Part shown: positions 1 through 32,398 of the stretch, one piece after another | How the letters are laid out: each line of letters opens with the position of its first letter | Position numbering within the stretch: the first letter of the stretch is position 1 | Virus record (IMG/VR): IMGVR_UViG_2585427621_000012 | Source of the DNA: a virus | Taxonomy: Duplodnaviria; Heunggongvirae; Uroviricota; Caudoviricetes | Strand: one strand, 5' to 3' | DNA length: 33,994 bases | Notes under the pieces: model-generated | What the model saw: only the letters and a program-made list of their open reading frames with translations | The model's database searches: none | Told to the model about the DNA's origin: nothing | Made by a program: the position numbers and the translations under genes

Positions 1-1362
1 ATGTTTAAACCGGAACTCCTTTCCCCGGCGGGAACGCTGAAAAATATGCGTTACGCTTTCGCTTATGGCGCAGATGCTGTTTATGCGGGCCAGCCGCGTT
101 ACTCCCTGCGTGTGCGCAACAACGAATTCAACCACGAAAACCTTCAGCTCGGCATCAATGAAGCCCACGCGCTGGGGAAAAAGTTTTATGTCGTGGTCAA
201 CATTGCACCGCACAACGCCAAGCTGAAAACCTTTATCCGTGACCTGAAACCGGTGGTGGAAATGGGGCCGGATGCGCTGATTATGTCCGATCCAGGGCTG
301 ATTATGCTGGTGCGTGAGCACTTCCCTGAAATGCCGATCCATCTCTCGGTACAGGCTAACGCCGTGAACTGGGCGACGGTGAAATTCTGGCAGCAAATGG
401 GACTGACCCGCGTGATCCTCTCTCGCGAGCTGTCGCTGGAAGAGATTGAAGAGATCCGCAATCAGGTGCCGGATATGGAGATCGAGATCTTCGTTCACGG
501 CGCACTGTGCATGGCCTACTCCGGTCGCTGCCTGCTCTCTGGCTATATCAACAAGCGCGATCCGAACCAGGGTACCTGCACCAACGCCTGCCGCTGGGAG
601 TACAACGTCCAGGAAGGGAAAGAAGATGACGTTGGCAACATCGTACACAAGTACGAGCCGATTCCGGTGCAAAATGTTGAGCCGACGCTGGGTATCGGCG
701 CGCCAACCGACAAAGTGTTTATGATCGAAGAAGCCCAGCGTCCGGGCGAGTATATGACCGCGTTTGAAGATGAGCACGGCACTTACATCATGAACTCGAA
801 AGATCTGCGCGCCATCGCCCATGTAGAACGCCTGACCAAAATGGGCGTGCATTCGCTGAAAATCGAAGGCCGTACTAAATCTTTCTACTATTGCGCACGC
901 ACCGCACAGGTTTATCGTAAAGCTATCGATGATGCCGCTGCGGGCAAACCGTTCGATACCAGCCTGCTGGAAACTCTGGAAGGTCTGGCGCATCGTGGCT
1001 ATACCGAAGGTTTCCTGCGTCGTCATACTCACGACGATTATCAGAACTACGAATACGGTTATTCAGTTTCTGACCGCCAGCAGTTTGTTGGTGAGTTTAC
1101 CGGTGAGCGCAAGGGGGACCTCGCGGCGGTAGCGGTGAAAAATAAATTCTCCGTTGGCGACAGCCTTGAGCTGATGACGCCGCAAGGCAACATTAACTTT
1201 ACCCTTGAGCACATGGAAAACGCCAAAGGCGAAGCTATGCCGGTAGCACCAGGCGATGGTTATACTGTGTGGCTCCCGGTGCCGCAGGATCTTGAGCTAA
1301 ATTACGCGCTGCTGATGCGTAATTTCTCCGGGGAAACTACGCGTAACCCCCACGGTAAGTGA
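1..1362 (+). CDS. yegQ: U32-family peptidase-like protein YegQ (TrhP, tRNA hydroxylation)
   Basis: Complete 453-aa ORF from ATG at 1; sequence recognised as E. coli YegQ (MFKPELLSPAGTLKNMRYAFAYGADAVYAGQPRYSL...); host flank to the left of the prophage. Confidence 0.85.
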   Translation: MFKPELLSPAGTLKNMRYAFAYGADAVYAGQPRYSLRVRNNEFNHENLQLGINEAHALGKKFYVVVNIAPHNAKLKTFIRDLKPVVEMGPDALIMSDPGLIMLVREHFPEMPIHLSVQANAVNWATVKFWQQMGLTRVILSRELSLEEIEEIRNQVPDMEIEIFVHGALCMAYSGRCLLSGYINKRDPNQGTCTNACRWEYNVQEGKEDDVGNIVHKYEPIPVQNVEPTLGIGAPTDKVFMIEEAQRPGEYMTAFEDEHGTYIMNSKDLRAIAHVERLTKMGVHSLKIEGRTKSFYYCARTAQVYRKAIDDAAAGKPFDTSLLETLEGLAHRGYTEGFLRRHTHDDYQNYEYGYSVSDRQQFVGEFTGERKGDLAAVAVKNKFSVGDSLELMTPQGNINFTLEHMENAKGEAMPVAPGDGYTVWLPVPQDLELNYALLMRNFSGETTRNPHGK

Positions 1363-1396
1363 TTAATTTCGATTATTTTTCCCGGATGGAAAATTC

Positions 1397-1412
1397 TTAG
1401 AAACCGATCACA
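1397..1412 (+). promoter_or_regulatory. Putative CRP site (TTAGA-N6-TCACA) and TATCAT -10 (1434-1439) of the cyaR promoter
   Basis: Half-site TCACA with 6-nt spacer, centred about 42 nt upstream of the inferred cyaR 5' end; cyaR is known to be CRP-activated. Confidence 0.35.
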
Positions 1413-1446
1413 TACAGCTGCATTTATTAAGGTTATCATCCGTTTC

Positions 1447-1533
1447 GCTGAAAAACATAACCCATAAAATGCTAGCTGTACCAGGAACCACCTCCTTAGC
1501 CTGTGTAATCTCCCTTACACGGGCTTATTTTTT
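1447..1533 (+). ncRNA. cyaR: CyaR (RyeE) Hfq-dependent small RNA
   Basis: Matches the remembered CyaR sequence GCTGAAAAACATAACCCATAAAATGCTAGCTGTACCAGGAACCACCTCCTTAGCCTGTGTAATCTCCCTTACACGGGCTTATTTTTT; terminator hairpin CCTGTGTAA/TTACACGGG followed by a U-run. Confidence 0.8.
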
Positions 1534-1534
1534 A
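1507..1534. repeat. att core, left copy (AATCTCCCTTACACGGGCTTATTTTTTA), overlapping the 3' end of cyaR
   Basis: Identical 28-bp copy at 33492-33519; reverse complement matches the remembered 27-bp P2 att core AAAAAATAAGCCCGTGTAAGGGAGATT. Confidence 0.8.
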
Positions 1535-1596
1535 CGCGTAATACAATGAAATAAAAGGATTTATTTCTGGTCACGTCCACATATTGACCACATCGA

Positions 1597-1623
1597 CAAA
1601 AAAAGCCCCTCAACTGAGGGGCT
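1597..1623 (-). terminator. Rho-independent terminator downstream of ogr
   Basis: Hairpin AGCCCCTC-aact-GAGGGGCT; on the minus strand it is followed by a T-run (plus-strand A-run 1597-1604). Confidence 0.5.
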
Positions 1624-1635
1624 TTCTGTTTGTAA

Positions 1636-1854
1636 TTACATCCACATAATTTGCTGCCCTGACGGCAACGGGTGCGGTCTTACGGCGTGGACTTCTCCCG
1701 GCTTCACGATGTATCGCTGTACCGACTCATAAGTGATGAACGTGGCGCTGCAATTCACGTTCTGACACTGGTGATAACGCTCTTTTGTCGTGTCAGTGAT
1801 ATAGCGACTTGTACGCGCATGTGCGGCATGCTGGCATAAAGGACAATGAAACAT
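1636..1854 (-). CDS. ogr: Late-gene transcriptional activator Ogr (zinc-finger)
   Basis: 72-aa product MFHCPLCQHAAHARTSRYITDTTKERYHQCQNVNCSATF... recognised as P2 Ogr; the 93-aa track ORF has a spurious N-terminal extension. Confidence 0.9.
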   Translation of the reverse strand: MFHCPLCQHAAHARTSRYITDTTKERYHQCQNVNCSATFITYESVQRYIVKPGEVHAVRPHPLPSGQQIMWM

Positions 1855-1935
1855 CGCGAGCACCTCTTCCGGTTTTGTTGATGGTGCCATTTTAGTTAAT
1901 TTATCCTTATAAAACAAACAGATAAAATAAAAACA

Positions 1936-3099
1936 TCATTCATCATCTTCTGTTTCGTATTCCACATCAGAAAGCCTGACCTCAAGCTCTAAGGACGTCG
2001 TGAAGCCGCTATTATTCAGAAAATGTGTCACCTTAGTGATGGTCCAGTCCTGCTCGTCTATGACGCGCTTAAAGCCTGACACTCTGACCGGTGTTTCCGT
2101 GTAAATATCTGCACGACCGGTAGCCAGGATGATGGAGAACTCCGCAACGCCCCGTTGCAGTTTGTCCCACTTCGCCTGAGCAGCACGCATGGCCTGTGCT
2201 TTCGTGGCATATACCGTGGTCAGGGCAAAAACGTTGTCAGCCTCACCGGCCATGTATTCACCTTCGCGCGCTTCCGGTACTTTTGGCGCTTTCTTCTGCC
2301 TGACCGGTTTCGCTTTCGGGTGCTCCAGTGCGCGCAGGTGTTTCTCTTTCTTTTTGCGTTTCAGTTTTACCTTCTGCTTTTGCGGTTTCGGGTCTTTGGT
2401 GTGTAACCACTTTGCCGTTACACCGGTATAGGCTCCACGGTCAGCAATCGCAAAATGATGGCGGTCGCCGTCGCTGCGGGTTATGGTGACCTGCGGGATT
2501 TTTTTACCGCTGGCCGTCACCCCCTGCCCCGCTTTGAGAAACAACAGTTTTCCCATTTTTACCGAGACCTCACCGCCGTTGCGTTCAGCAAGGCGGGTCA
2601 GGAATTTTGCATCAGACTCCTGCGACTGGTCGATGTGCGGGATTTTAATTCCGGCCAGTGACGGCGCGACACTGGCTTCCAGCCTGTTACGGGAGGCTAT
2701 TGCCTCAACAATCGCACCGAGCGTGGTGTCATGCCAGGAGTCTTCACGGCGGGAATTGAGCGTCCCGCGAAAATCTGCACTCCGGGCGCGGATGGTGACC
2801 ACATCCGGCGCGCCCCGGTGTTCAACCTCATCAACGGTAAATTTCCCTTTGCATACCAGGGCAAAACCTTTCCAGCCGATATACACCGTCAGGACAGCGC
2901 CACGAATCGGCAGCCCGACCTGCCCGTCGGCATCGTTCAGTTCAATATCAAGCTGGTCAGCCTCAAAGCCCCGGTTATCCGTCAGAGTCATGCTCATCAG
3001 ACGGTCGCTGATATTGCCGGTAATATCCCTGCTGTCGAGCATCAGCATGTAATCCGGCGTCAGCGTACTGCCTGCATCAAATGTCAGTGCATCCAGCAT
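1936..3099 (-). CDS. D: Tail protein gpD
   Basis: 387-aa ORF, P2 gpD-like in sequence and in position (between ogr and U). Confidence 0.9.
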   Translation of the reverse strand: MLDALTFDAGSTLTPDYMLMLDSRDITGNISDRLMSMTLTDNRGFEADQLDIELNDADGQVGLPIRGAVLTVYIGWKGFALVCKGKFTVDEVEHRGAPDVVTIRARSADFRGTLNSRREDSWHDTTLGAIVEAIASRNRLEASVAPSLAGIKIPHIDQSQESDAKFLTRLAERNGGEVSVKMGKLLFLKAGQGVTASGKKIPQVTITRSDGDRHHFAIADRGAYTGVTAKWLHTKDPKPQKQKVKLKRKKKEKHLRALEHPKAKPVRQKKAPKVPEAREGEYMAGEADNVFALTTVYATKAQAMRAAQAKWDKLQRGVAEFSIILATGRADIYTETPVRVSGFKRVIDEQDWTITKVTHFLNNSGFTTSLELEVRLSDVEYETEDDE

Positions 3100-3578
3100 T
3101 ATCCCGCCCCCGTCATACCTGTGAATTTAGTCGCCATACTGCCAGCCTTACCGATGAGCGATTCCGCCTGTTTACCGATATCGCCATAAAGCGCGGCCAG
3201 TGGTTCGTCAACGCGGGTGAGCGACAGCGTAAAATCAATTTTTCGGGGTGTGCCGTCTGCAAAGAAAATACTCCCTGTTTCACTCACCCTGCTGATGACA
3301 TACATGCCGTAAATCATGCCGGTGCCATCCAGCAACGGCCACGCCCGACCTTCCTCTGCCATCAGCCTGAGCGTGGTCATCGTCAGCTTGCCGCCGGTCA
3401 GTTCGGGATAAAGCACACCGGCCAGCGTCATGTTTTCCTCGCCAACGCCGAGAAACTGGTAGGCATCCCGTTTACCGATACGGGAATTTGACGGCCAGCG
3501 ATAATCTGATTCACGCTGCATGGTCTGGTGTGGCAGCGTCTGGCGCATAAAAACAAACATACCTAACGCGAGCATCAT
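3099..3578 (-). CDS. U: Tail protein gpU
   Basis: 159-aa ORF, same size and position as P2 gpU; overlaps the D start. Confidence 0.85.
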   Translation of the reverse strand: MMLALGMFVFMRQTLPHQTMQRESDYRWPSNSRIGKRDAYQFLGVGEENMTLAGVLYPELTGGKLTMTTLRLMAEEGRAWPLLDGTGMIYGMYVISRVSETGSIFFADGTPRKIDFTLSLTRVDEPLAALYGDIGKQAESLIGKAGSMATKFTGMTGAG

Positions 3579-3592
3579 TTTTCGTCACCTCC

Positions 3593-6040
3593 TTAACCGT
3601 CATGCATCATGCTGGCACGGGCGCGCGCACGTTTATCCCGCTCGTATTTTTCGAGCGCATCCTGTAACTGGCGGTCAAGCTGTGTCCCCGGCGCAGTACC
3701 ACCCGTCAGGCTGATGTGATATTCGTTTTTACTCTGGTCCACATAAGAGCGGCCAGCCGGTGCCGTGACCGGCTGATAAGCCTGATAGCCTGCATAAGAG
3801 CTGGTCGCCGGAATATAACCACCGGTGCCATACGTGGCGGCATGAGTTCTGGCGGCGGTCTGGTCAAGTGTGTCTGACTCTTTGTTGATAACACCGAGTT
3901 TTTCCAGTACCCAGTCAATACCACTGCGCAGTTTGTTGAACGCATTAAGCGGCAGCATCAACGCGTCAGCCAGTGCCTGCCCGAACATGACGCCCGTGTC
4001 ACGGCAACGGTTCAGGGTGTCCTGGGTGGCTTTGACCGGGGCAATCAGTTTTTTAAACCACTGCCACGCGGCCTGTAACTTTTCACCCAGCCAGTCAAAC
4101 AGCGGCTTAAGTGGCGTGAACAGTTCCCCCACCGGCGCAAATGCAGCTTTCAGCCCTTCAACCACACCGCCAAAGAATGCGCTGACAGGCTCCCAGTATT
4201 TACGGATAAGCAACGCCCCGGCGACAATTGCAGCCACCACGGCCACAACCGGCCAGCTAATCGCCCCGATGGCCGTCATAACAGCACTGCCAACCGTCGT
4301 GAAGATTGCCCCCATTGCGCCTGCTGCCGCGATGATGGCATTAATGCCGGTGATAACCGGCCAGGCTACAAGACCAATTGCACCGATGATGCCAATAAGC
4401 GCCAGTGCGCCACCGACAATAAGGCCGATGGTTGACGCCAGTGATTTGTTTTTCTGGATCCAGCCGTCGAGTTTTAACACATACTTTGTGGCCGTCTGCG
4501 TGAGATTACGCAGTGCGCCTTCCTGTTGGTCAAACAGGTCAGTCCCCACCGCCTCATAAGCGGACTGAAACTCCTTAAAGTCACCGCCGAGGTTGTCCTG
4601 CATGATATTTACCAGCTCTGCGGTCTTCCCGTCTGAGGCTTTAAACGCAGCGGTCAGTTTGTCCAGCTTTCCGGTTGAGGCGGCAGTCATCAGCACGGCG
4701 GCGGCTGAACTGGCCTCCTCCCCGAAAATGGTTTTCATGTATTCAGCCTGCTGGGCAGTACCGAGCCGGTTTTTCTCAAAACTGGCCTGCATTTCTTTCA
4801 GAATGGTAAATATTGGTCGGGTATTCCCCTTGCTGTCTGAGGTTTTCACTCCAAGCTCTTTGAGTGCATCCCATGCTTTTCCCGTCGGTGCCTGCAGGCG
4901 ACTTAACACGGCACGGCTTCCCGTCCCCGCCATTGAGCCTGTGATTTTTGCATCATGCAGCGCCCCGACCATTGCGGCGGTTTCTTCAATGCTGACACCG
5001 GCATTTTTTGCCACAGGTGCGGCATAGGTCAGCGCATCGCTCATACCGTCAAAATCGGCGGCGGTTTTGTTCATCGTCATGGAGAGAACATCCCCGATAT
5101 GAGCAACCTTATCGTTTGAAAGCTGAAAGGCAGATTTCATCCCCATCAGCAGGGCGGCGTTTTCTTCCATCGTGCGACGGTTCGCCAGCGCCATATTCAG
5201 CGTGACCGGCGTTGCCGCCTGAATGGCATCAACATCCCCACCCGCTTTCGCGATGATAATCTGTGCACCGGCCGCATCATCCGCCGAGGCGGCGGTATTG
5301 TCGCCGAGCTGGCGCGCCTGCTTGCGTAGCGCGGCCATTTCGGCGGAGTCTTTTGCCACACCGAGCACGGCCTGTAATTCTGAGTTTTTCTGCGCAAATT
5401 CATAACCGGGCATCAGCAGCTTAACACCGGCCATCGTTCCCGCCGCCGCAATCCCCACACCGGCAGCGCCCACTGAGGCCATATTTCCGGCCAGCTCCTT
5501 TCCTGCCTGATAGCGCTGTTTTACTGCGTTAAGTTTTGCCTGTTGCGCACTGACACGCGCCAGCGCGTCACGCTGCCGGTTAAGCTGTGCGGTGGTTTCA
5601 CTGATACGGTTTTTCAGCCCCAGCTCATCATGTGCAAGATTGCGGGTATTAATTCCCACAGCGGCCAGTTCCCGCTGCTGGCGTTTAACGGAATCCGTCA
5701 GGCGGTTATATTTCGCCTGTAAGTCCTCCGCCGCACGCTTTGCGGATTCCAGCACTTTCGCCTGAGCACGGGTCGGACGTTCGGTGTTTTTAAACTGTGT
5801 GGCAAGGGCTTCGGCCTCCTGCCGTGCCTTTTCAAGTGCATGACCAGTCACGGCGAGCTGTGCGCTGGTCTTGCGGAATCCCTCAATACGGGATGCCTGC
5901 CCGTTCAGCTCGCGCAGTGATTTTTGTGTTTCCCGGATATCCCCCGACAGCGACTTACTCGCTGTGCGGATGGATTTAAACGGGCGGGATGCCTGGTCAA
6001 CAGCCCTGAGCAATACCTGTAATTTTACATTGTTACTCAT
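3593..6040 (-). CDS. T: Tail tape-measure protein gpT
   Basis: 815-aa ORF, Ala/Gly-rich with coiled-coil and hydrophobic segments; P2 gpT size and position. Confidence 0.9.
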   Translation of the reverse strand: MSNNVKLQVLLRAVDQASRPFKSIRTASKSLSGDIRETQKSLRELNGQASRIEGFRKTSAQLAVTGHALEKARQEAEALATQFKNTERPTRAQAKVLESAKRAAEDLQAKYNRLTDSVKRQQRELAAVGINTRNLAHDELGLKNRISETTAQLNRQRDALARVSAQQAKLNAVKQRYQAGKELAGNMASVGAAGVGIAAAGTMAGVKLLMPGYEFAQKNSELQAVLGVAKDSAEMAALRKQARQLGDNTAASADDAAGAQIIIAKAGGDVDAIQAATPVTLNMALANRRTMEENAALLMGMKSAFQLSNDKVAHIGDVLSMTMNKTAADFDGMSDALTYAAPVAKNAGVSIEETAAMVGALHDAKITGSMAGTGSRAVLSRLQAPTGKAWDALKELGVKTSDSKGNTRPIFTILKEMQASFEKNRLGTAQQAEYMKTIFGEEASSAAAVLMTAASTGKLDKLTAAFKASDGKTAELVNIMQDNLGGDFKEFQSAYEAVGTDLFDQQEGALRNLTQTATKYVLKLDGWIQKNKSLASTIGLIVGGALALIGIIGAIGLVAWPVITGINAIIAAAGAMGAIFTTVGSAVMTAIGAISWPVVAVVAAIVAGALLIRKYWEPVSAFFGGVVEGLKAAFAPVGELFTPLKPLFDWLGEKLQAAWQWFKKLIAPVKATQDTLNRCRDTGVMFGQALADALMLPLNAFNKLRSGIDWVLEKLGVINKESDTLDQTAARTHAATYGTGGYIPATSSYAGYQAYQPVTAPAGRSYVDQSKNEYHISLTGGTAPGTQLDRQLQDALEKYERDKRARARASMMHDG

Positions 6041-6460
6041 TCGTGTTTCCGCTTCGCCTGAGCGCCTTTTCGCGCCATGTGATGAGTTCGGTCAGGCTCA
6101 TGGGATACAGTTCTGATGGCGGCCAGTGAAATACCACTGCCACATCCGCCATCAGGTCATCGACCGAGAGATTTTTCGGAAACGTCACTGCACCGAGTTC
6201 GGCGACAAAAAACCGACCACCTTACCGGCCAGCGCCACAAGGTCAGGCAGTTCCAGCGCGGCGACCTCCTGTTCGGTCAGCATCGGTGCCGTCATGCGCG
6301 GCAGCACTTTAATCAGTGCATCGACTTCGGAGTTCGCGACCGCAGCCAGACTGACACCGCGCAGCGTCCCGGCATTGGGTTTCATCAGCGTGACCTGTTC
6401 GATAACCTGCTCACCACGCTTGACCGGATTGTCCAGGGTAATCACATTTTCTTTGTTCAT
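6033..6460 (-). CDS. Tail assembly chaperone E+E' fusion produced by a -1 programmed frameshift
   Basis: After the T_TTT_TTG slip the -1 frame stays open for 57 codons to a TAA at 6035-6033, overlapping the T start; total 142 aa, as for P2 E+E'. Confidence 0.7.
6185..6460 (-). CDS. E: Tail assembly chaperone gpE
   Basis: 91-aa ORF in the P2 gpE position between FII and T. Confidence 0.85.
   Translation of the reverse strand: MNKENVITLDNPVKRGEQVIEQVTLMKPNAGTLRGVSLAAVANSEVDALIKVLPRMTAPMLTEQEVAALELPDLVALAGKVVGFLSPNSVQ
6206..6212 (-). other. Slippery heptamer T_TTT_TTG for the E to E' -1 frameshift
   Basis: Minus-strand TTTTTTG covering codons F84-L85 of gpE (plus-strand CAAAAAA). Confidence 0.7.
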
Positions 6461-6516
6461 GGTTTTCTCACTTCTGAATCAGGGTTAACCGGTCAGCCTG
6501 GCTGACCGGATGAAAA

Positions 6517-7035
6517 TCACAGGCCGATATTGCGGCGGTGTTGCTCCAGCCGGTCGACGCCGTTCACCTTCTCAATCATGTTGATGGTGTCGATTTCGAC
6601 CAGCTCCTTACCGTCCATCGTCAGCCGGAAATAGGTGCAGACCACGGAGATTTTCGACTCGGTGTCTTCTCCCTGTTTACCCTCGCCGGTGTCGATTTCT
6701 TTCTGACGGCCACGCATGACCACCTCGACGGCCACCGTTTCGCCGGTATCGTCGCGCTGGTAAGAGCCTGCAAAACGAATCGGTACGGCATCCACACCGG
6801 TTGCGGCGTAAAGCTCCCAGATAACCGAATCCGGGAAGCCACCGAGCGACCACTCCATTGACAGCGCATCGTCATCAAGGCCGAGGTCTACCGGTGCGCT
6901 GCCATTCATCCCCGCACCGCGATAGTTTTCGAGCTTACGGGTCAGTTTTGGCAGCGTGACGGACTTCGCGACGCCCTGATAGCTGTAGCCGTTCAGAAAG
7001 ACGTTCATTAACTTGAGTTTGCGCGGCATTGCCAT
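6517..7035 (-). CDS. FII: Tail tube protein gpFII
   Basis: 172-aa ORF, P2 FII size and position. Confidence 0.9.
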   Translation of the reverse strand: MAMPRKLKLMNVFLNGYSYQGVAKSVTLPKLTRKLENYRGAGMNGSAPVDLGLDDDALSMEWSLGGFPDSVIWELYAATGVDAVPIRFAGSYQRDDTGETVAVEVVMRGRQKEIDTGEGKQGEDTESKISVVCTYFRLTMDGKELVEIDTINMIEKVNGVDRLEQHRRNIGL

Positions 7036-7047
7036 CGGTCAGGCTCC

Positions 7048-8238
7048 TTAATTGCTGTTAACCGAGGTGACCAGATTTGCCAGGTATTTATCGGTGATAC
7101 GCTGGCGCAGGGTCAGGTTTTCAAGAGGAGGTACCGGTGTATAGTCGTAGTCGATATACAGTTTTCCGGCCTTGAGGGTTTCCGCATCGCTGGATTCTTC
7201 GCTGAACCAGCAGGTCGCATCCACGATATAGCCGTTTGTTTTCAGCTCACGGAATTTGGCATTGATGCCGTCAACGATGTCGCGAATCAGCGTTGCGGTG
7301 ATGGGCTTGTCCACCGCCCACATGTGCGCCTCAGCCATCGTGTCGGCCAGCACCTGCGCGGTGCGGGTGTAGTTTTCAAAGAGGAACAGCGGGTCATCAG
7401 AGCAGGTACGGTTACCCCAGAAGCGGAAACCGTCGCGGCGAATCAGCGTAGTGACGCCTGACTCGTTAAGCAGGTCAGCATCGGTGCCGGACTCCTGCAA
7501 ATCCCAGAATACAGATGCGCTGATGCCGTTAACACCGTTTACCCCGACGTTGGACAGCGTTTTATGCCAGCCCTGCTCCTGGTCGATTTTCGCGCGCAGA
7601 CCCAGCGCACGGGCGGTGGCATACGCGGTGGCGGTGGTGCTGCTGACCGTATCCCATGCGAGGAAATCCAGCCAGATGACCATCAGCTCACGCTGGCTGA
7701 AATTCTGGCGGTAGGCTTTCACCTCGGAAATGGTTTTACAGCCCCATGCGCTGATATACCCGAAAGCGCGCAGCTTCTGACAGACTGATGCCAGTGCAAC
7801 AGCCACCTCTTTGGTGTCCAGTCCCGGCACGCCGAGAATACGCGGTTTAACACCGGTTACCGACTCTGCCGCCAGCAGGGCTTTCAGTCCGGTATACTGA
7901 CCGTTTTCGTCAGTGGTGCCGATGATATTGGAAACGGTCTGCGCGAGTTTCGTTTCTTCGTCGTCGCCGGTGCCGTCTTCAACACGCACGACAACGGTAA
8001 CCGGTTTTGACTGGTCAGCGATGGCCTGCAACGATGCCGCCAGCGTGCCTTTTTTACCGGCCTTTGCAATTGCGCTCTGCACATTGGTAATCAGCACAGG
8101 TTTATTGAGGGGGAAGGTTTCCGCATCCGCATCGCTGGCCGTGCAGACCATGCCGACAATGGCGGTGGATACGGTGGAAATGACGCGGGTGCCGTCGTTA
8201 ATCTCCAGCACCTGCACGCCGTGATGATAATCACTCAT
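7048..8238 (-). CDS. FI: Contractile tail sheath protein gpFI
   Basis: 396-aa ORF, P2 FI size and position. Confidence 0.9.
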   Translation of the reverse strand: MSDYHHGVQVLEINDGTRVISTVSTAIVGMVCTASDADAETFPLNKPVLITNVQSAIAKAGKKGTLAASLQAIADQSKPVTVVVRVEDGTGDDEETKLAQTVSNIIGTTDENGQYTGLKALLAAESVTGVKPRILGVPGLDTKEVAVALASVCQKLRAFGYISAWGCKTISEVKAYRQNFSQRELMVIWLDFLAWDTVSSTTATAYATARALGLRAKIDQEQGWHKTLSNVGVNGVNGISASVFWDLQESGTDADLLNESGVTTLIRRDGFRFWGNRTCSDDPLFLFENYTRTAQVLADTMAEAHMWAVDKPITATLIRDIVDGINAKFRELKTNGYIVDATCWFSEESSDAETLKAGKLYIDYDYTPVPPLENLTLRQRITDKYLANLVTSVNSN

Positions 8239-8296
8239 CCGTTTAACTCCGTGGTTAATGGGTGAGTGATATTTCAGTTGTGCCGGAGATGTCAGG

Positions 8297-8890
8297 CTAT
8301 TTGTCCCGGTTGGCTAAGGGATGACACAATTTATTCTTTGTCGCTGATGAGGGGAATTTTTTATAGAGCGTGGACAGGCCAATATCAAAAATCAGCGCCA
8401 CACGTTGACGAGATTCCCCCGCAGCCAGCAACCGTCCGACCTGCTCCCACTCACTCGTGGTGAGTTTCGGTCGTCTGCCACCAATACGACCTTTGGCTCT
8501 GGCCGCTTCCAGTCCGGCGCGTGTCCGCTCGACAATGAGTTCTCGCTCCATTTCTGCCAGGGCCCCCATCACATGAAAGAAAAAGCGCCCCATCGGCGTG
8601 CTGGTATCAATAGCATCCGTCAGGCTGCGAAAATTAACGCCGCGTTCGCGCAGTTCCTCAACCAGAATGACCAGATGCCGCATACTACGCCCCAGCCTAT
8701 CCAGCTTCCAGACTACCAGAGTGTCACCTGCTGATAATGTTCTGAGCAGTTTTTTCAGTCCCGGTCGGTCGGACTTCGTGCCGCTGATTTTATCCTCAAA
8801 ATCAGCTCACATCCTGCACACTCCAGCGCATTACGCTGCAATTCCGTGTTCTGGTCATTTGTTGACACGCGTACATAGCCAATAAGCATG
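8297..8890 (-). pseudogene. Serine DNA invertase (Gin/Hin/Pin/Cin family), frameshifted as sequenced
   Basis: N-terminus MLIGYVRVSTNDQNTELQRNALECAGCE (8890 downwards) and C-terminal 128-aa ORF (...VVWKLDRLGRSMRHLV...GRIGGRRPKLT...) are in different frames; one missing base in a T-run (plus-strand A-run 8788-8791) relative to the expected ...ELIFEDKISGTK... reading. Confidence 0.7.
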
Positions 8891-8916
8891 AGCATCTCCC
8901 TGAATAAAAACCGGAG

Positions 8917-9450
8917 ATGATGCCAGTTACCCGTTATTTCTGCATTTTCATAAACGTTGGTTTGGGAGAAGGTTCGGCATTACCCGTTGGTGTGCCTGTT
9001 CCGTGGCCTTCAGCCACTCCGCCGACAGGCTGGCTGAAATGCAACGGGGCGGCTTTTTCTGCTGAAGAATACCCGGAACTGGCAAAGGTTTACCCGACAA
9101 ATAAATTGCCTGATTTACGTGGTGAGTTTATTCGTGGCTGGGATGACGGACGTGGAGTGGATAACGGAAGGGGATTATTGACGCTTCAGGACGGTGCGAT
9201 TGTCAGTCATAACCACTATTGGGGAATCTGGACTTCACGAACTAACGACCAGACTCTGGAAAGTTTTACAGGCACCACGATTTTAAAACAAATCACGCCC
9301 CTGTCTCCGGCCATTAACTTCGATAATTACCCAATTCCCAACCCGGCTATTACAGAGGGTGGTGTTGTTGCGGCAACGACTAAACCTGCAGGTGCGAATG
9401 AAACACGCCCACGAAATGTCGCTTTTAACTATATTGTGAGGGCTGCATAA
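8917..9450 (+). CDS. Alternative tail-fibre C-terminal cassette (Sv'-like), silent in this orientation
   Basis: Conserved tail-fibre C-terminal motifs (LPVGVPVPWPSATPPTGW..., LPDLRGEFIRGWDDGRGVD); no upstream constant part on this strand; the first 28 nt lie outside the invertible segment and are probably not coding. Confidence 0.6.
   Translation: MMPVTRYFCIFINVGLGEGSALPVGVPVPWPSATPPTGWLKCNGAAFSAEEYPELAKVYPTNKLPDLRGEFIRGWDDGRGVDNGRGLLTLQDGAIVSHNHYWGIWTSRTNDQTLESFTGTTILKQITPLSPAINFDNYPIPNPAITEGGVVAATTKPAGANETRPRNVAFNYIVRAA
8945..8970. repeat. Invertase crossover site, left (26 bp, hix/gix-like)
   Basis: TTTTCATAAACGTTGGTTTGGGAGAA; its reverse complement matches 10877-10902 at 20 of 26 positions, including an identical 15-bp block TTCTCCCAAACCAAC/G. 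Confidence 0.65.
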
Positions 9451-10052
9451 TGAATAACGCAGAATTAAACAGTGAATTAATTGCCACTATGGCAGGAGAA
9501 ATTACTGTTTATAACTTTGATGTCATGAGTCGGGAATATATTTCAGCTTCAACTGAATATCTTGCTATTGGTGTCGGCATTCCGGCATATTCCTGTTTAG
9601 ATGCCCCAGGCGCATACAAAGCTGGTTATGCAATCTGCCGTTCTGCAGATTTTAACTCATGGGAATATGTGCCAGACCATCGCGGTGAAATCGTCTTTAG
9701 CACCGAAACAGGAGAATCAAAAGAAATCACCGCTCCGGGTGATTACCCTGATAATACAACCACTATCGCCCCGTTAACGCCATACGATAAATGGGATGGT
9801 GAGAAATGGGTGACGGATACCGAAGCACAGCATAGCGCCGCAGTAGAAGCGGCAGAAACACAACGCCAGTCGCTGATTGATACTGCAATGGCTTCCATTA
9901 GTCTGATTCAGCTGAAATTACAGGCCGGACGGAAGCTGACGCAGGCAGAAACCAACCGACTTAACACGGTGCTGGATTACATTGACGCGGTGACGGCAAC
10001 AGATACCAGCACCGCGCCGGATGTCATCTGGCCTGAACTGCCGGAGGCGTAG
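9450..10052 (+). CDS. Tail fibre assembly protein, alternative copy (U'-like)
   Basis: 200-aa ORF with the conserved Tfa C-terminus (...LDYIDAVTATDTSTAPDVIWPELPEA); start overlaps the stop of the preceding cassette (TAATG). Confidence 0.75.
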   Translation: MNNAELNSELIATMAGEITVYNFDVMSREYISASTEYLAIGVGIPAYSCLDAPGAYKAGYAICRSADFNSWEYVPDHRGEIVFSTETGESKEITAPGDYPDNTTTIAPLTPYDKWDGEKWVTDTEAQHSAAVEAAETQRQSLIDTAMASISLIQLKLQAGRKLTQAETNRLNTVLDYIDAVTATDTSTAPDVIWPELPEA

Positions 10053-10496
10053 GCCATTCAATATCTGGCGCACTGGCGGTATCGACCAGCTCCAGTGCGT
10101 CCAGATAATCCAGCCACAAATTATATTGTGCCAGTTCCTCACCTTTCAGACGACCAATAGCGGCTTTACCGGGCCATTGCTTACTGTTCATGTATTCGTT
10201 GGCCTGGTTAATTAGTAGCTGTCTTTCTGATTCAGTAATTTCAATAAGTTCTTCATGCGTGGGTGGAGGAATATCTGCCACGCAGGCAGCCCATCATCTC
10301 CGCATGCGGAATTACTGTGACGTTCAGTCCATTAATACACTGATAATATGTTGTTCGCTTCAGCCATAAACTCACTGATAATATTTTGATTTACTTCCTT
10401 AGCGTCTGATAAATCCCATCCCTCTGATTTATATTTATCAATCATATCCACAGGGAAAAAAGCATTATGCCTTGCGCTATAAACATATTCGTTCAT
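10024..10496 (-). pseudogene. Tail fibre assembly protein for the active orientation, apparently split across frames
   Basis: N-terminal 54-codon ORF (10332-10496, MNEYVYSARHNAFFPVDMIDKYKSEGWDL...) and a GTG-initiated 85-aa ORF (10024-10281, conserved Tfa C-terminus ...LDYLDALELVDTASAPDIEWPTPP) are in different frames, separated by stops. Confidence 0.5.
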
Positions 10497-10516: not shown

Positions 10517-11716
10517 TTACTCACCAACAGCCCACCAACTGTAATTCATCGATACCGTGTCGCTGGTTGATGACGTTCTGTAAGCAGAATTAAAGCCGGT
10601 TAACGTTGGGCCTTCTGCAGTCATCACGAACCCTCGCCCAGCGCCTAAAGGCGCACCGCCATCACCAGAATGAGTAAGCATGGCGCAGTCCGCTTTTTTG
10701 GGGAAAGGGATGCTGAATGTAATTCTCATTGTTTGCGTCGATAATGTCGGCGTAACCGCACCACGACCATATTGCAGGATTTTACCGTTGGGTAATTTCA
10801 TCCATCCATCACCACTGGCAAAAGAGGCCATGTCCGGTATCTGATTTTCCCCTGTCCCCACATCCCGTTTTGCCGCTTCTCCCAAACCAAGGTATGCGAG
10901 AAGACCGGCAACATCCTTTCCACTCAAATGAGTCAGCGTCTCATCCAGTGGCTGCTTACCTGACAGCGCATTGTTAATGGTGGTGCTGAATTTCGGGTCA
11001 TTGTTAATGGCCGCGGCAATTTCTTTCAGTGTGTCCAGCGTGTCTGGCGCGCCGTTAATCAGAGCGGTAATAGCGGTCTGAACAAACTCAGTGGTCGCAA
11101 TCCGCGTGGTGTTATTTCCTGCGGCAGGCGTTGGCGCTTTTGGTTCTCCGGTAAATGTCGGATTATGTTTCTGCGCATACTGGGTATGAGGATCCTGTGC
11201 GGCAATGTGGTTTCTCATCTGGTCATCCACATACAGCCTTAATTCCAGGACTTTATCATCCACGTATTTACGGGTCGCCAGTACCACCGACGGGTCGATT
11301 TTCAGCGTGATGGCTTCGGTATTCGTGACAACCAGAATCATGCGGATAGTCTGGGTACGACCGCTGCCTTCCTGTAACTGCGGTTTGTACGTTTCCGGGC
11401 AGTTCGCCACCGCAATGAGTACGCCTTCATCATCATAAAGCCCAATCTCACGGATCCAGAATCCGCCCTCGTTCTCAGGGATGATTTGCTCCGCAATAAT
11501 CTGGCTCTGGTTGTTCGGGTCAACACTCAGAAGATTCAGCGGCGCGATGCGTTTCTGGTTAATAAGTTTTGTCTGTGCCGGGTCAGGTGTCGGCAAGACA
11601 CCATTTGCATCACCAACGGCCATTTGCGTCAGATTCAGCTTACTGCCGAGCATCGTCGCGTTAGCCAGCCGTGCCGCGCCCTGATTAGTCAGAATGGCGT
11701 AGTATTTCACTGTCAT
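10517..11716 (-). CDS. H: Tail fibre protein (gpH-like), active orientation
   Basis: 399-aa ORF; N-terminal about 250 aa resemble P2 gpH (...GGFWIREIGLYDDEGVLIAVAN..., ...NDPKFSTTINNALSGKQP...); C-terminal part differs and begins at the crossover site (..YLGLGEA..). Confidence 0.85.
   Translation of the reverse strand: MTVKYYAILTNQGAARLANATMLGSKLNLTQMAVGDANGVLPTPDPAQTKLINQKRIAPLNLLSVDPNNQSQIIAEQIIPENEGGFWIREIGLYDDEGVLIAVANCPETYKPQLQEGSGRTQTIRMILVVTNTEAITLKIDPSVVLATRKYVDDKVLELRLYVDDQMRNHIAAQDPHTQYAQKHNPTFTGEPKAPTPAAGNNTTRIATTEFVQTAITALINGAPDTLDTLKEIAAAINNDPKFSTTINNALSGKQPLDETLTHLSGKDVAGLLAYLGLGEAAKRDVGTGENQIPDMASFASGDGWMKLPNGKILQYGRGAVTPTLSTQTMRITFSIPFPKKADCAMLTHSGDGGAPLGAGRGFVMTAEGPTLTGFNSAYRTSSTSDTVSMNYSWWAVGE
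10877..10902. repeat. Invertase crossover site, right (26 bp), inside the tail-fibre gene
   Basis: TTCTCCCAAACCAAGGTATGCGAGAA; imperfect internal dyad (TTCTCCCAAACC / GGTATGCGAGAA) around a central AA; encodes YLGLGE at about residue 270 of H. Confidence 0.65.
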
Positions 11717-20476: not shown

Positions 20477-20649
20477 TGTCAGGAGTCCTGAATAGTGATT
20501 AGAAGAGTCACATGTCGGCATCAGTTTCCCGACGATGCGCATCCTCCGCCATCAGTCCCGGATGGCTTATCACTGACACAACAGCACCTTAGCGAATCGC
20601 GGGGCGCGACTCAGTAGCCTTGCCGTGTATTCATCACGGCGAGGTATTC

Positions 20650-22422
20650 ATGACCATCACCACAGACACCACTCTTTTACACGACCCGCGTCGTCAGGCG
20701 GCGCTGCTGTACTGGCAGGGATTTTCCGTGCCGCAGATTGCCGCCATGTTGCAGATGAAACGCCCGACGGTGCAGAGCTGGAAACAGCGCGACGGCTGGG
20801 ACAGCGTTGCCCCCATCAGCCGTGTCGAAATGAGTCTGGAAGCGCGGCTGACCCAGCTCATCATCAAACCGCAGAAAACCGGCGGTGACTTCAAGGAAAT
20901 TGACCTGCTCGGACGCCAGATTGAACGACTGGCACGGGTAAACCGCTACAGCCAGACCGGCAACGAGGCAGACCTTAATCCGAACATCGCTAACCGCAAC
21001 AAAGGCGGGCGGCGCAAACCGAAAAAGAATTTTTTCAGTGACGAGGCTATCGAAAAGCTGGAGCAGATTTTCTTTGAGCAGTCTTTCGAATATCAGTTGC
21101 ACTGGTATCGCGCCGGGCTTGAGCACCGCATCCGCGATATCCTGAAATCCCGCCAGATTGGCGCGACGTTTTATTTTTCCCGCGAGGCGCTGCTGCGCGC
21201 CCTGAAAACCGGTCATAACCAGATTTTTCTGTCGGCCAGTAAAACGCAGGCGTATGTGTTCCGCGAATACATCATCGCCTTTGCCCGGCTGGTTGACGTT
21301 GACCTGACCGGTGACCCGATTGTCCTGGGCAATAACAGCGCAAAACTGATTTTTCTCGGCACCAACTCCAACACCGCGCAGAGCCATAACGGCGACCTGT
21401 ACGTCGACGAGATTTTCTGGATACCGAATTTTCAGGTACTGCGTAAGGTGGCATCAGGTATGGCCTCACAGAGTCACCTGCGCTCGACCTATTTCTCCAC
21501 CCCGTCCACGCTGGCGCACGACGCCTACCCGTTCTGGTCGGGTGAACTGTTCAACCGGGGACGCGCCAGCGCCGCCGAACGCGTGGAAATCGACGTCAGT
21601 CATAACGCTCTTGCCGGTGGGCTTCTCTGTGCGGACGGTCAGTGGCGGCAGATTGTCACCATTGAGGACGCCCTGAAAGGTGGCTGCACGCTGTTCGACA
21701 TTGAGCAGCTTAAACGCGAAAACAGCGCCGACGATTTTAAAAACCTGTTCATGTGTGAATTTGTTGACGACAAGGCGTCGGTGTTCCCGTTCGAGGAGCT
21801 GCAACGCTGCATGGTCGACACGCTGGAAGAATGGGAAGACTATGCGCCGTTTGCCGCGAATCCGTTCGGCTCCCGCCCGGTCTGGATTGGTTACGACCCG
21901 TCACACCGTGGCGACAGTGCCGGATGCGTGGTGCTGGCACCGCCGGTGGTGGCCGGTGGCAAATTCAGAATACTTGAGCGTCACCAGTGGAAAGGCATGG
22001 ACTTTGCCACCCAGGCTGAATCCATCCGCAAACTCACCGAAAAATACAACGTCGAATACATCGGAATTGATGCCACCGGCCTCGGTGTCGGCGTGTTCCT
22101 GCTCGTTCGCTCGTTCTATCCCGCCGCACGCGATATCCGCTACACGCCGGAAATGAAAACCGCAATGGTGCTCAAGGCAAAAGACGTTATTCGCCGTGGC
22201 TGTCTGGAATATGACGTCAGCGCCACCGACATCACCAGCTCGTTTATGGCTATCCGCAAGACCATGACCAGCAGCGGACGCAGCGCCACCTATGAGGCCA
22301 GCCGCAGCGAGGAAGCCAGCCACGCCGACCTCGCCTGGGCGACCATGCACGCCCTGTTAAATGAGCCACTCACCGCCGGTATCAGCACCCCGCTGACATC
22401 CACCATTCTGGAGTTTTACTGA
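20650..22422 (+). CDS. P: Terminase large (ATPase) subunit gpP
   Basis: 590-aa product starting MTITTDTTLLHD...; divergent from O, as in P2. Confidence 0.9.
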   Translation: MTITTDTTLLHDPRRQAALLYWQGFSVPQIAAMLQMKRPTVQSWKQRDGWDSVAPISRVEMSLEARLTQLIIKPQKTGGDFKEIDLLGRQIERLARVNRYSQTGNEADLNPNIANRNKGGRRKPKKNFFSDEAIEKLEQIFFEQSFEYQLHWYRAGLEHRIRDILKSRQIGATFYFSREALLRALKTGHNQIFLSASKTQAYVFREYIIAFARLVDVDLTGDPIVLGNNSAKLIFLGTNSNTAQSHNGDLYVDEIFWIPNFQVLRKVASGMASQSHLRSTYFSTPSTLAHDAYPFWSGELFNRGRASAAERVEIDVSHNALAGGLLCADGQWRQIVTIEDALKGGCTLFDIEQLKRENSADDFKNLFMCEFVDDKASVFPFEELQRCMVDTLEEWEDYAPFAANPFGSRPVWIGYDPSHRGDSAGCVVLAPPVVAGGKFRILERHQWKGMDFATQAESIRKLTEKYNVEYIGIDATGLGVGVFLLVRSFYPAARDIRYTPEMKTAMVLKAKDVIRRGCLEYDVSATDITSSFMAIRKTMTSSGRSATYEASRSEEASHADLAWATMHALLNEPLTAGISTPLTSTILEFY

Positions 22423-23773: not shown

Positions 23774-25744
23774 TTAAAGGTCATCAATTAAACCTAAAGG
23801 CAAACCGTCCTCACCAACCGAGCTATAATGAGCGATAATATTCGAAAGTTCACCAGTAGAAAACGAATTAGGCAAATCATTATCAACTAATATAATCTGG
23901 CACGGAACATTTTTTCTTTCTGCTTTTTGAACTGTATTCAATAGTTGTTCATAAATATTTTGATACTTCATCGGATCTGACATTCCCTCAAGGTCATCCT
24001 CGAATGCAAGAGTTTCTTTTGAATATTTTTCCTTGGTCTGTTTCCCTAAATATTTGCCAACCGTATCAAATATCAAAAGTAAAGGATGGTTAACATTATG
24101 ATCTATTGCATAATCAAGAATAGACAAAAGATACCCAATAGAAGAAATAGTTCTCAAACCTCCGGATGTTATTTTAAAATATTCTTTTTCTCTTATAACA
24201 GGAATGTAATAGCTTTCAGAGATTTTTATCCCCGTTCTGTTTTTGATATTAATACCCTTCAAATACTGACTAAATCTATCACCCAAACCTTGTAAAATGC
24301 CCTCCATGCTAGGTGCGTTTTTCTTTAACGCCTCCAAGCGTTCAGTTAATGCTTCAATATCTTTTCTCAGTACCTGATACTTTTCAAGCAGTTCCTCTTG
24401 CTGGTTTCTAACCTTCAAATCTTTTACTAACTGCTCCCTAACCTTCTCATTTTTTGAGATCTCTTTAATATAAAAATCTCTCTGAGTCAAGAATGGTGTA
24501 ATCATTGACTGGCTTTCTTCGTCAATCAATTCTCTCAACTCGTCAAGTCGTTCATCTAATTCCTTTTTATAACCTGATTCTTTTTTTAATTTAAATGACA
24601 TTTCTGAGATCATGTCATTAATATTTCGTCTACGTCGACTAAGTGAATTCAACTCTTCATTAAGATCTTTTTCTGATGAAATTTCAAATGGAAAATCAGA
24701 ATCATCTATTTTAATGTGGCTATCACAGACTGGACAGGAAAATACTTCCTTATCCAATACACCAATGCGAGAATTTGCTGTTTTAATCGCTTTGAGTTTT
24801 TCAATATCATTATCATAGTCATTTTTTAACCGCGAATATTTATCAATCTTATCCTCAAGCGCAGTAATATTTAATATGCACTCTTTGTATTTAAGCGAAA
24901 TAAAATTGTGAGCATCTTTCAATTCTGTATACTGTATGGAATCCGCTTTCATATTTTTATCGAGAGCAGACAAACCTGCAACAAGTTCTTCTAAAACAAG
25001 ATCTATCCTATTAATCTCATCATCAATTGATTCAATCGTTTCATAGTCTGTATCGCGAAGAAATTCAGATATTATCTGATACTTCCTATTTAATTCCGTT
25101 ACTAAACTACTTTTTGCAGATATTTCACCTTGGAGTCTGGCGATGCTTTCATCCAACACATTGAACATGTATTTAAAAACTTCTTTCGTAAATGCGTAGC
25201 GGGACCAATCACCCAATCGCAAGAAAGATTTACTACCAATATCATCCTGACTTACATAAACAAATTTATATATATTTCTAAAACTTAACCTGCGCATCTG
25301 TGAATGAGCTTTAGAAGGAGACACCTTAATTTCAATCTTTGGAAAATTAAGACTATCAAGTAAAAACTCCGAAAAAACACCATCAACATTTGATAATGGG
25401 CTATAATTAGGAGCGTATTTTTTCGGAAAATGTTTATGTAAATCATCAAACTTACAACGATAAACTTCTATTGCTTTTTTATGATCATAGATATCTCTTA
25501 CGATTGTGAATACAGTATCATTGATCACTACTTCAAGAGCAGCATAGTTTACTGATGTTTTTATTTCATCTGCTAAATCTATAGAGCTAGCACCTAAAAG
25601 ATAATTAATAAACTCCAGAATGCTTGACTTACCTGTGTCAGAGTCTCCGTAGATAACATTGAGACCTTTATAAAAAGTAGTGACGTAGTTTTTACGAACG
25701 CCAACAAGAATCAAACTATTGATATTGAGATATGATTTCATCAT
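23774..25744 (-). CDS. Rad50/SbcC/SMC-like ABC ATPase with coiled coil and CxxC zinc hook (candidate defence ATPase, LmuB-like)
   Basis: 656 aa; Walker A GDSDTGKSS near the N-terminus; long low-complexity charged, helical middle with CPVCD at about residue 336; C-terminal signature-like TSGG, Walker B LLLIFD, and ILVDND; AT-rich codon usage. Confidence 0.7.
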   Translation of the reverse strand: MMKSYLNINSLILVGVRKNYVTTFYKGLNVIYGDSDTGKSSILEFINYLLGASSIDLADEIKTSVNYAALEVVINDTVFTIVRDIYDHKKAIEVYRCKFDDLHKHFPKKYAPNYSPLSNVDGVFSEFLLDSLNFPKIEIKVSPSKAHSQMRRLSFRNIYKFVYVSQDDIGSKSFLRLGDWSRYAFTKEVFKYMFNVLDESIARLQGEISAKSSLVTELNRKYQIISEFLRDTDYETIESIDDEINRIDLVLEELVAGLSALDKNMKADSIQYTELKDAHNFISLKYKECILNITALEDKIDKYSRLKNDYDNDIEKLKAIKTANSRIGVLDKEVFSCPVCDSHIKIDDSDFPFEISSEKDLNEELNSLSRRRRNINDMISEMSFKLKKESGYKKELDERLDELRELIDEESQSMITPFLTQRDFYIKEISKNEKVREQLVKDLKVRNQQEELLEKYQVLRKDIEALTERLEALKKNAPSMEGILQGLGDRFSQYLKGINIKNRTGIKISESYYIPVIREKEYFKITSGGLRTISSIGYLLSILDYAIDHNVNHPLLLIFDTVGKYLGKQTKEKYSKETLAFEDDLEGMSDPMKYQNIYEQLLNTVQKAERKNVPCQIILVDNDLPNSFSTGELSNIIAHYSSVGEDGLPLGLIDDL

Positions 25745-25853
25745 TTCTCCTTGAAGACTTGATTTATAACAGAGTTTAACTTAGAGGTAGGCAATGCTTG
25801 TAGCGGTAACAATGCTTCGGATAGTCGTTTTATTTCTTTAAAATATCCATCAG

Positions 25854-26252
25854 TCAATGAGCTAGCAAATTCCTTACCTTTTTCAGATAAAAATAATTTA
25901 ACACTCTCATTATTTTTTTCTCAGCTGAGAGCAATCCCCGCAATGACATAATTTTTATAAGATATTTCACTTTGGAATTGTCGAATAAGATATCTACATT
26001 TGTTGAAAAACTCTTTATTGTATAAGTTAACTGGGACTCGACACAAGCAGGCTTTTTCCCCGAAACTGTAAGAGCATAATCAATTTTTGATGGGTTTTTT
26101 ATCAGATACATAAAAATTTGTATTTTATTAATATCTAATGATAACACTCCTTTTTTGCTATGAGATAATATAGATATAGCAATGGCAAGCATAGCAAAAT
26201 TCAAGCTATACTCTTCATCAAGAGGAATATACGGCAAGTTATTTTTCTTCAT
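25854..26252 (-). CDS. Small middle-component protein of the three-gene module; as sequenced 132 aa, possibly about 170 aa if a frameshift at an A7 run is resolved
   Basis: ORF between the hydrolase and ATPase genes; a second open frame (25741-25912, ...SVKLFLSEKGKEFASSLTDGYFKEIKRLSEALLPLQ...) continues to a TGA overlapping the ATPase ATG. Confidence 0.55.
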   Translation of the reverse strand: MKKNNLPYIPLDEEYSLNFAMLAIAISILSHSKKGVLSLDINKIQIFMYLIKNPSKIDYALTVSGKKPACVESQLTYTIKSFSTNVDILFDNSKVKYLIKIMSLRGLLSAEKKIMRVLNYFYLKKVRNLLAH

Positions 26253-27462
26253 GATTACCTCGCCGTAATTGCTCCAAAGTTTCTACGCTGGTTTCAGATG
26301 ACCAGACAATATCCCTGTCATTTTTGTTAGCCAGTTGATGCAACATTCCTTTCTTATGTATCGTTTCTAAACTTTTTATAAGAGAATCTAACGACGACTT
26401 ATCCTCTTGGGCTATTCGTCTATGAACAGCAGCAATAAATTTATCTGGGGAAATTGAATTCGCGATATATTGCTCATACTCTTCCTGGTAAATCTCCCTT
26501 ATTTTAGAATACAAATGACCAAGTAGTTTCCTATCGTAATCACTCGTAAAAATATTTCTCGCAAGCTCAGCATTATAATAATATTCCTTTGCATGCATAG
26601 CGATATCCTGATGTATATCTGCGACAATCATTTTTAAGACGAAATACTCATTATCATATTGTTTCTCATCAGAAAAACGCTCAACACATATCTTCTTGGG
26701 TGCTTCTAAATTTATCTGCTGAATAAATTGCTTTACCGCAACAAACACTGTAGACGAGCTGTTTTCGGGCTTGCAAATTGAGCTATGCCCTTCATTAACT
26801 GCAATTGAGTTATTTCGTTCACTATCCATCGGTAATGCGCTTTTTTTATCAACTATAGTGTCATGAGAACCATAAACATATCTAGTGATAGGAAGTTTTT
26901 TGCTACAATTTATCCAGCGCCTATTCAACGTATCGGTCGCTTCACTTAACAATCCAAGATCTACTAACTGAGCATTTGAAGATACCATTGAAGTTATATT
27001 CGCCAATTTAGCACCAAAGTGAGGGACTGCTAACGAAATGAATCCAATTATATTAGATTGTTCCTCATGCTCAACTTTTTTTAGAATTAGATTTTTTGAT
27101 ATTACCCCCCCCATACTATGGGCGATTATTATAATTCGAGAGTAATCACTTAGCGTTACCCTAATCTCAGTATACAATAACTCAGCTATTTCATCAGTTG
27201 GTAAATTTCTCTCTAACTTATTTTTCTTAGAGAAAATACGAGCCCATAATCCTGACGTTTTAGCATACGTTTGTGTAAATTTGGTGAAATAATTGAAACA
27301 TGCAATATCAAATACATTGCCAATGTCTTCATCTTCTGCTAATAGTTTTGGAAATGAAGTTTCTTTATTAAAGTTCCATGTTTCCAAACCACCATTTAAT
27401 CCATGTACAAATAGTATCAGGCTATCTTTTTTCTCGTGGCTTATCCATTCAACCATGCTCAT
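26239..27462 (-). CDS. Lipase-like alpha/beta-hydrolase (serine hydrolase) with C-terminal helical domain (candidate effector, LmuA-like)
   Basis: 407 aa; oxyanion-hole motif LILFVHGLNG, nucleophile elbow AHSMGG (AxSxG), downstream GSHDT (Asp) and NEGHSS (His) consistent with a Ser-Asp-His triad; about 170-aa helical C-terminus; AT-rich. Confidence 0.7.
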   Translation of the reverse strand: MSMVEWISHEKKDSLILFVHGLNGGLETWNFNKETSFPKLLAEDEDIGNVFDIACFNYFTKFTQTYAKTSGLWARIFSKKNKLERNLPTDEIAELLYTEIRVTLSDYSRIIIIAHSMGGVISKNLILKKVEHEEQSNIIGFISLAVPHFGAKLANITSMVSSNAQLVDLGLLSEATDTLNRRWINCSKKLPITRYVYGSHDTIVDKKSALPMDSERNNSIAVNEGHSSICKPENSSSTVFVAVKQFIQQINLEAPKKICVERFSDEKQYDNEYFVLKMIVADIHQDIAMHAKEYYYNAELARNIFTSDYDRKLLGHLYSKIREIYQEEYEQYIANSISPDKFIAAVHRRIAQEDKSSLDSLIKSLETIHKKGMLHQLANKNDRDIVWSSETSVETLEQLRRGNHEEK

Positions 27463-32284: not shown

Positions 32285-32398
32285 CAATTTATCGTGAATA
32301 TATTCATCACAAGTGCCTACTATTGGTGGCTAAATTTCAGCCACACGAAAAAAGCGATTAGTAGTAGCAAAAAAAAGTACCACTCGGAGGGTTTTCTG

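Follow-up and report, generated by a model that had tools for sequence, protein, structure and literature searches.

The prophage and its invertible tail-fibre cassette

The window (the whole stretch of DNA analysed here, 33,994 nucleotides long) extends from yegQ to yegR of E. coli O157:H7 and holds a complete P2-like (Peduovirus-type) prophage inserted between these two genes. It is 99.9% identical to positions 2805937-2839905 of EC4115 (NC_011353), many other O157:H7 genomes match it likewise, and phage pro483 is about 97% identical to it.

The tail-fibre gene H (399 aa) lies at 10517-11716 on the minus strand and is matched by Phage_tail_fib (210.6 bits) and Gp53-like_C (46.5 bits). In its current orientation a constant N-terminal part is joined to a variable gp53-like C-terminus. 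Directly downstream on the same strand, at 10024-10496, is tfa, the counterpart of Mu U and P2 G; 20 nt separate the end of H (10517) from the start of tfa (10496). As a chaperone, the product of tfa brings about the folding and trimerisation of the fibre's receptor-binding end. The gene occupies 473 nt here and is a single 444-nt ORF in its relatives. Facing it on the plus strand (9450-10052) is tfa', the intact 200-aa chaperone of the inactive orientation (Caudo_TAP, 113 bits), which is convergent with tfa and overlaps it by 29 nt. The alternative fibre C-terminus, a Collar domain used after inversion, precedes tfa' at 8917-9450 on the same strand.

Two 27-nt crossover sites (repeat I1, arms 81% complementary) flank these two alternative pairs of fibre end and tfa. 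One is at 10876-10902, inside H at the boundary between its constant and variable parts, and the other, at 8945-8971, adjoins a serine invertase of the Pin/Gin type (8297-8895, minus strand), which in the window is split by an A5>A4 contraction at 8798. The EC4115 counterpart of the invertase is annotated as a "recombinase family protein", and its counterpart in a related cassette from a different strain, O157:H7 2011EL-1107 (GCA_000616365.1, JHLK01000033.1, 95440-97091), shows PF00239 and PF02796. In the 2011EL-1107 cassette the orientation is reversed, and the gp53-like end and tfa adjoin the invertase. Its flipped junction joins window positions 7853-8971 to 10890-10356 in inverted sense at 95-96% identity. 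Since this cassette joins the same two crossover sites in the opposite sense, such cassettes do flip. H reads through its crossover site into the gp53-like end, so the tfa at 10024-10496 is the chaperone of the active orientation, just as the original prediction held when it called that gene disrupted. O157:H7 also carries a second copy of part of the cassette, about 1.1 kb from the crossover site at 10893 to 9771, with tfa included.

None of this is unusual. The locus is an ordinary tfa in a Pin/Gin-type invertible cassette. It shares with the Mu G segment and Gin, the P1 C segment and Cin, and the e14 P segment and Pin a serine invertase beside the invertible segment, inverted crossover sites of 27 nt at the constant/variable boundary of the fibre, and two convergent pairs of variable fibre end and tfa, which the related O157:H7 cassette holds in the other orientation. 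There is no difference of substance from these systems; the invertase in this assembly merely adds its private A5>A4 frameshift. Within the Caudo_TAP family (PF02413; lambda Tfa, Mu U/U', P2 G) the gene has the usual position downstream of the fibre gene and the usual architecture of a variable N-terminal and a conserved C-terminal domain.

A point of annotation concerns H. RefSeq (PGAP) divides it in several O157:H7 genomes into a partial pseudogene and a gp53-like protein of 136 aa. The sequence there (20490-21689 of EC4115 locus L005) is identical to the window and is one intact ORF of 399 aa, and pro483 annotates a single gene.

Two open reading frames in place of one

Translation of the three minus-strand frames confirms the original prediction that tfa is broken into two ORFs in different frames, 50 nt apart, one of 54 codons and one of 85 aa that begins with GTG. 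ORF1 (10332-10496) starts with ATG at 10496 and runs to codon 54 at 10335, followed by a TAA stop at 10334-10332. Its residues 1-46 are the normal Tfa N-terminus, and its last 8 (ANNILSVY) are read from a garbled block. ORF2 (10024-10281) starts with GTG at 10281 and ends with a stop at 10026-10024. Past the start codon it is residues 64-147 of intact Tfa, which is the conserved C-terminal domain. The split is a deterministic feature of the sequence, so chance is not at issue.

ORF2 does bear the conserved Tfa C-terminus, as had been claimed; it matches Caudo_TAP with 79.8 bits against a cut-off of 22.1. It does not amount to a full chaperone domain on its own. It covers only profile positions 54-130 of 131, where the intact Tfa of a relative covers positions 3-130 of 131 and scores 107.3 bits. 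A single uninterrupted ORF over the variable N-domain and the conserved C-domain is absent in the window and present in all relatives, including EC4115 (WP_001008233.1), pro483 (ORF32) and OW1E2. We attribute its absence in the window to sequence error rather than to biology.

Two details of the original prediction do not hold. It had only the third frame open in the gap between the ORFs, but the frame of ORF1 reopens directly behind its TAA and stays open across the entire gap. Beyond the stop this frame still encodes GDDGLPAW, the normal Tfa sequence just before ADIPPP. It had also supposed that two frame changes, or a small pair of indels, separate the ORFs; what lies there is an error-dense, imperfect duplication of 33 nt.

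Anatomy of the lesion

The nearest sequence to the window's tfa is WP_001008233.1 of EC4115, and pro483 has the same gene, of 444 nt, as ORF32. The EC4115 protein is identical in residues 1-46 and 64-147, and so is the gene outside 10278-10358; the window differs only by a net 29 nt in length and by errors between 10278 and 10358 that are seen nowhere else. The length difference (473 nt against the 444 nt that encode 147 aa in relatives) is made up of 35 nt gained by duplication and filler and a net 6 nt lost through eight small indels, and there are eight substitutions besides.

When the window is aligned to EC4115 by BLAST it falls into two HSPs, 1-10353 and 10356-33994, which overlap by 33 nt in the reference (20329-20361 of L005). 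This overlap means that 33 nt stand twice in the window, in tandem but imperfectly, with 2 filler bases between the copies. One copy, at 10356-10388 (direct repeat D3), is nearly clean, its one mismatch being a C/G difference at 10358, 2 nt inside the copy. The stretch at 10303-10355 is error-dense and contains the noisy copy (about 10321-10353), some 18 nt before it on the plus strand, and the filler at 10354-10355. On the gene strand the sequence is normal as far as GCTGAA, then comes GCG, followed by AATCAAAATATT...GCCGGAG copied at about 80% identity, after which the normal sequence resumes. The lesion in the window spans GCTGAAGCGAACAACATATTATCAGTGTATTAATGGACTGAACG, and the intact 444-nt tfa carries GCTGAACCGCCACAAGGAAAAATCCGTATTGCCGGAG, with GGG before CAGAT.

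There are 16 differences from EC4115 within 10278-10353, in a window that is otherwise 99.98% identical. Fifteen of them, 7 indels and 8 substitutions, fall in 10303-10353, which amounts to roughly 25% error over about 50 nt. These errors are not distributed monotonically; the last 16 nt before the junction hold one mismatch only. The sixteenth is a homopolymer contraction at 10277-10278, C3>C2 (GGG>GG on the gene strand), and it shifts the frame from GDDGLPAW into ADIPPP.

The lesion falls where the variable N-terminal part of Tfa gives way to the conserved C-terminal one, and the matches of other phages begin at about this place (query positions 240-266). In the modular model of Tfa this separates a fibre-binding N-domain from a trimerising C-domain (summarised in PMC9608196).

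The lesion is found in one assembly

We looked for the two-ORF layout in a set of 5,426 complete E. coli genomes (28 Gb), which includes the closest relatives of strain SS17 but not SS17 itself. About 480 of these genomes carry this tfa allele, counting those in which at least 80% of a 551-nt query is covered. The best-listed of them span 522 nt against the 551 nt of the window, which is the intact form, and neither among the examined nor among the best-listed genomes with this allele was the two-ORF layout found. The original prediction would have lost its point had related phages shared this layout; they have one ORF. All that aligns to the 101-nt region around the lesion is the corresponding part of ordinary tfa genes, at 81-84% identity. 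Its core of 60 nt has no match above 88% identity in the 28 Gb of complete E. coli genomes, even at E<=10. Scans for the exact pattern of the block returned zero matches in collections of genomes, metagenomes and viral contigs.

The proteins tell us where the sequence comes from. In a collection of 15 billion proteins at least 1000 contigs encode the intact Tfa of 147 aa, and a single one, from E. coli O157:H7 str. SS17, encodes the aberrant 54-aa product. An exact-product look-up had neither ORF1 (as 54 or 57 aa) nor ORF2 on record, and the 54-aa product was found through its cluster membership. It is AIF94417.1. The 128-aa fragment of the invertase is AIF94413.1, and both belong to SS17, on a contig of 5,523,849 nt. 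The source assembly of the window is E. coli O157:H7 SS17 (CP008805). A search of the PDB with the sequence of intact Tfa gave no match.

Most members of the cluster that holds the aberrant protein are Tfa fragments that stop at residues 44-50; several carry a partial annotation, and many draft assemblies have partial Tfa proteins of this kind. The 2011EL-1107 contig, the one we examined, ends at nt 152 of tfa, at most 15 nt from the junction. Short-read assemblies appear to break at this site in tfa, and this suggests a hotspot for assembly breakpoints at the Tfa domain boundary.

Other private differences and the history of the assembly

Three independent O157:H7 genomes served for comparison: EC4115 from the USA, CEC13004 from Japan, and E32511, which has no recorded country. 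Wherever the window has a private difference, these three agree with one another, and each has only 0-1 private differences of its own over the same 34 kb. The window has private SNPs at 7591, 7670 and 10358, the first two in the sheath gene. All 5 of its private single-base indels are homopolymer contractions, although only 17% of its bases are in runs of at least 3 and 46% in runs of at least 2. Besides the one in tfa, they are T4>T3 at 8272 in the spacer just downstream of the invertase, A5>A4 at 8798, which frameshifts the invertase, T8>T7 at 25913, which cuts the ABC-3C middle component to 132 aa, and CC>C (C2>C1) at 32344 in the spacer between a repressor-like HTH gene and the integrase. 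The deletions at 8272 and 8798 occur together in 0 of the 5,426 complete genomes, the best identity being 99.7%. The invertase is intact, at 594 nt, in all compared genomes: EC4115, CEC13004, E32511, SS52, TW14359 and others.

The gene cut short at 25913 belongs to cargo that the prophage carries between its portal and replication genes (23774-27462, minus strand), which the EC4115 annotation gives as an AAA ATPase and an ABC-three-component (ABC-3C) system. The apparent loss of its "middle component 4" is probably one more error.

The reads for SS17 came from an Ion Torrent PGM and were 165 +/- 31 nt long. The genome was assembled both de novo and by reference guidance in SeqMan NGen and closed by manual primer walking and Sanger sequencing (PMC4321836). 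The same group later compared strain SS52 with its close relatives, and counted 139 homopolymer and 129 frameshift differences from SS17, against 26 and 18 from EC4115 and 7 and 9 from TW14359, all four strains being close relatives (PMC5552260, Table 3). These counts are the signature of a consensus rich in homopolymer errors.

Weighing the explanations

We believe that the two-ORF tfa is an artefact of the sequencing and assembly of SS17, and neither decay nor a new arrangement of the gene; we put the probability of this at roughly 0.87. The lesion is private to one assembly, and it matches the error profile of the platform that produced that assembly. The original prediction had left the choice between a systematic indel error mode in the assembly and an ongoing decay of accessory genes. 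The private homopolymer contractions in the invertase, in the middle gene and at 10278, together with the Ion Torrent reads, favour the first, and the second is unlikely, given three O157:H7 genomes that are nearly identical over 34 kb and intact at all the sites.

The lesion would have two components. In one, two pieces overlapping by 33 nt would have been set end to end with the overlap left unmerged because the end of the left-hand piece (about 10303-10353 on the plus strand) was sequence of low quality. Such a join would produce the imperfect tandem duplication, the 2 filler bases and the patch of about 50 nt with roughly 25% error. The other would be an undercall of the homopolymer at 10278, C3>C2, of the same kind as the other four private deletions. 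A contig end or gap at this place in an assembly of 165-nt reads, closed by hand with a poor read end whose overlap went unrecognised, would give just the structure that is observed, and we infer that the join arose from gap closure or contig merging. The location fits as well: tfa lies in a segment that can invert and is partly duplicated in O157:H7, and short-read contigs appear to stop there. Both components have known counterparts. Ion Torrent undercalls are likewise homopolymer contractions, as are all the private single-base indels of the window. Contig overlaps left unmerged in manually finished genomes resemble the duplication, which is the overlap of two alignable pieces, one of them with a poor end. 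SS17 was made with the same chemistry and finishing as such cases, and differs from them in that its error density is not monotonic toward the junction. This tells against an artefact, since the density of errors in the textbook decay of a read tail would rise toward the join. It also counts against an artefact that the SS17 authors report confirming ambiguous areas by PCR and Sanger sequencing (PMC4321836), that real slippage mutations favour homopolymers as well, and that accessory genes of prophages do decay.

The same points can be read in favour of genuine decay specific to SS17, with a 33-nt duplication, local mutation, and slippage frameshifts in the invertase and the ABC-3C gene, which would lock the prophage in the orientation with a dead chaperone. 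The sequence is after all as deposited, its ambiguous regions were confirmed by Sanger sequencing according to its authors (PMC4321836), slippage in homopolymers is a natural mode of mutation too, and the affected genes are dispensable for a lysogen. We nevertheless consider genuine decay unlikely. About 25% divergence in about 50 nt, against a background of 99.98% identity, does not come easily from ordinary mutation. Nor is it easy to see why there should be five private homopolymer indels in 34 kb here and 0-1 in three sister genomes, or about 7-14 times more frameshift differences from SS52 in SS17 than in EC4115 or TW14359 (PMC5552260), in an assembly made with a chemistry known for exactly this error (PMC4321836). 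A variant would make the noisy 33-nt duplication real, as the mark of an unusual burst of mutation at the Tfa domain boundary, for instance through error-prone repair synthesis in which the template slipped. We find this quite improbable. If the duplication and the inactivation of the invertase were both real, the SS17 prophage would be frozen in an orientation that has no chaperone.

The place of the lesion invites two further explanations. A divergent tfa paralogue might have donated the block, by mosaicism or gene conversion; tail-fibre genes often recombine at the domain boundary, which is where the lesion lies and where the matches of other phages begin, and O157:H7 does have a second copy of the cassette. 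There is no donor, however, since the 60-nt core of the block is matched nowhere above 88% identity in the 5,426 complete E. coli genomes, and the only alignments of the block are to its own position in tfa, of which it is a noisy copy. A conversion tract would also not make a tandem duplication or break the frame three times, and we regard this explanation as highly improbable. Alternatively the two ORFs might be functional, through programmed frameshifting or as N- and C-domains expressed separately, and the break does fall between the two modules of Tfa (PMC9608196). We give this next to no credence. The layout is conserved in no relative, and the single ORF that all of them have effectively refutes it. 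Joining the ORFs would need readthrough of the TAA plus a frameshift, and ORF2 is without 40% of the Caudo_TAP domain.

The case serves chiefly as a caution. The window holds at least 6 lesions private to its assembly, in tfa, the invertase, the ABC-3C middle component and two intergenic sites, and they should not be taken as pseudogenisation, as phase-locking of the fibre switch or as a lost defence system. It also shows that short-read assembly and finishing by hand can be expected to run into trouble where a tail-fibre cassette is invertible and duplicated. The tfa of this prophage is most likely an ordinary Caudo_TAP chaperone in a well-known type of cassette, and the split most likely not a real feature. 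Were the lesion real, it would concern only one prophage copy in one strain, making non-infective particles, and would be of local interest.

Other candidates

Several other sources of the block were considered and rejected. A chimera of the two orientations of the cassette does not account for it. The mirror position (about 9492-9544) shares only a direct similarity of 17 nt (14/17; D8), which has the wrong polarity and does not continue. Mutagenesis of the DGR type does not fit, as the substitutions are not specific to adenine and indels dominate. The footprint of an IS or transposon does not fit either; the 33-nt duplication is too long, known target-site duplications being far shorter, and its copy is imperfect.

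Paralogous reads, or conversion, from the second cassette copy deserved a closer look, as the copy in JEONG-1266 has GG in common with the window and gives a slightly better alignment with the block. This too was rejected. The four homopolymer deletions in the JEONG-1266 tfa are private to that genome and the second copies in other O157 genomes are intact at 444 nt, so there is no donor allele. The second cassette of JEONG-1266 (L004, 3611056-3614151) is of some interest in itself. It is annotated as a row of frameshifted pseudogenes, and its tfa has these four deletions where the other genomes have an intact gene of 444 nt, at 99.1% identity. The deletions are probably assembly errors as well, and one of them strikes the same GGG run as the contraction at 10278 in the window.
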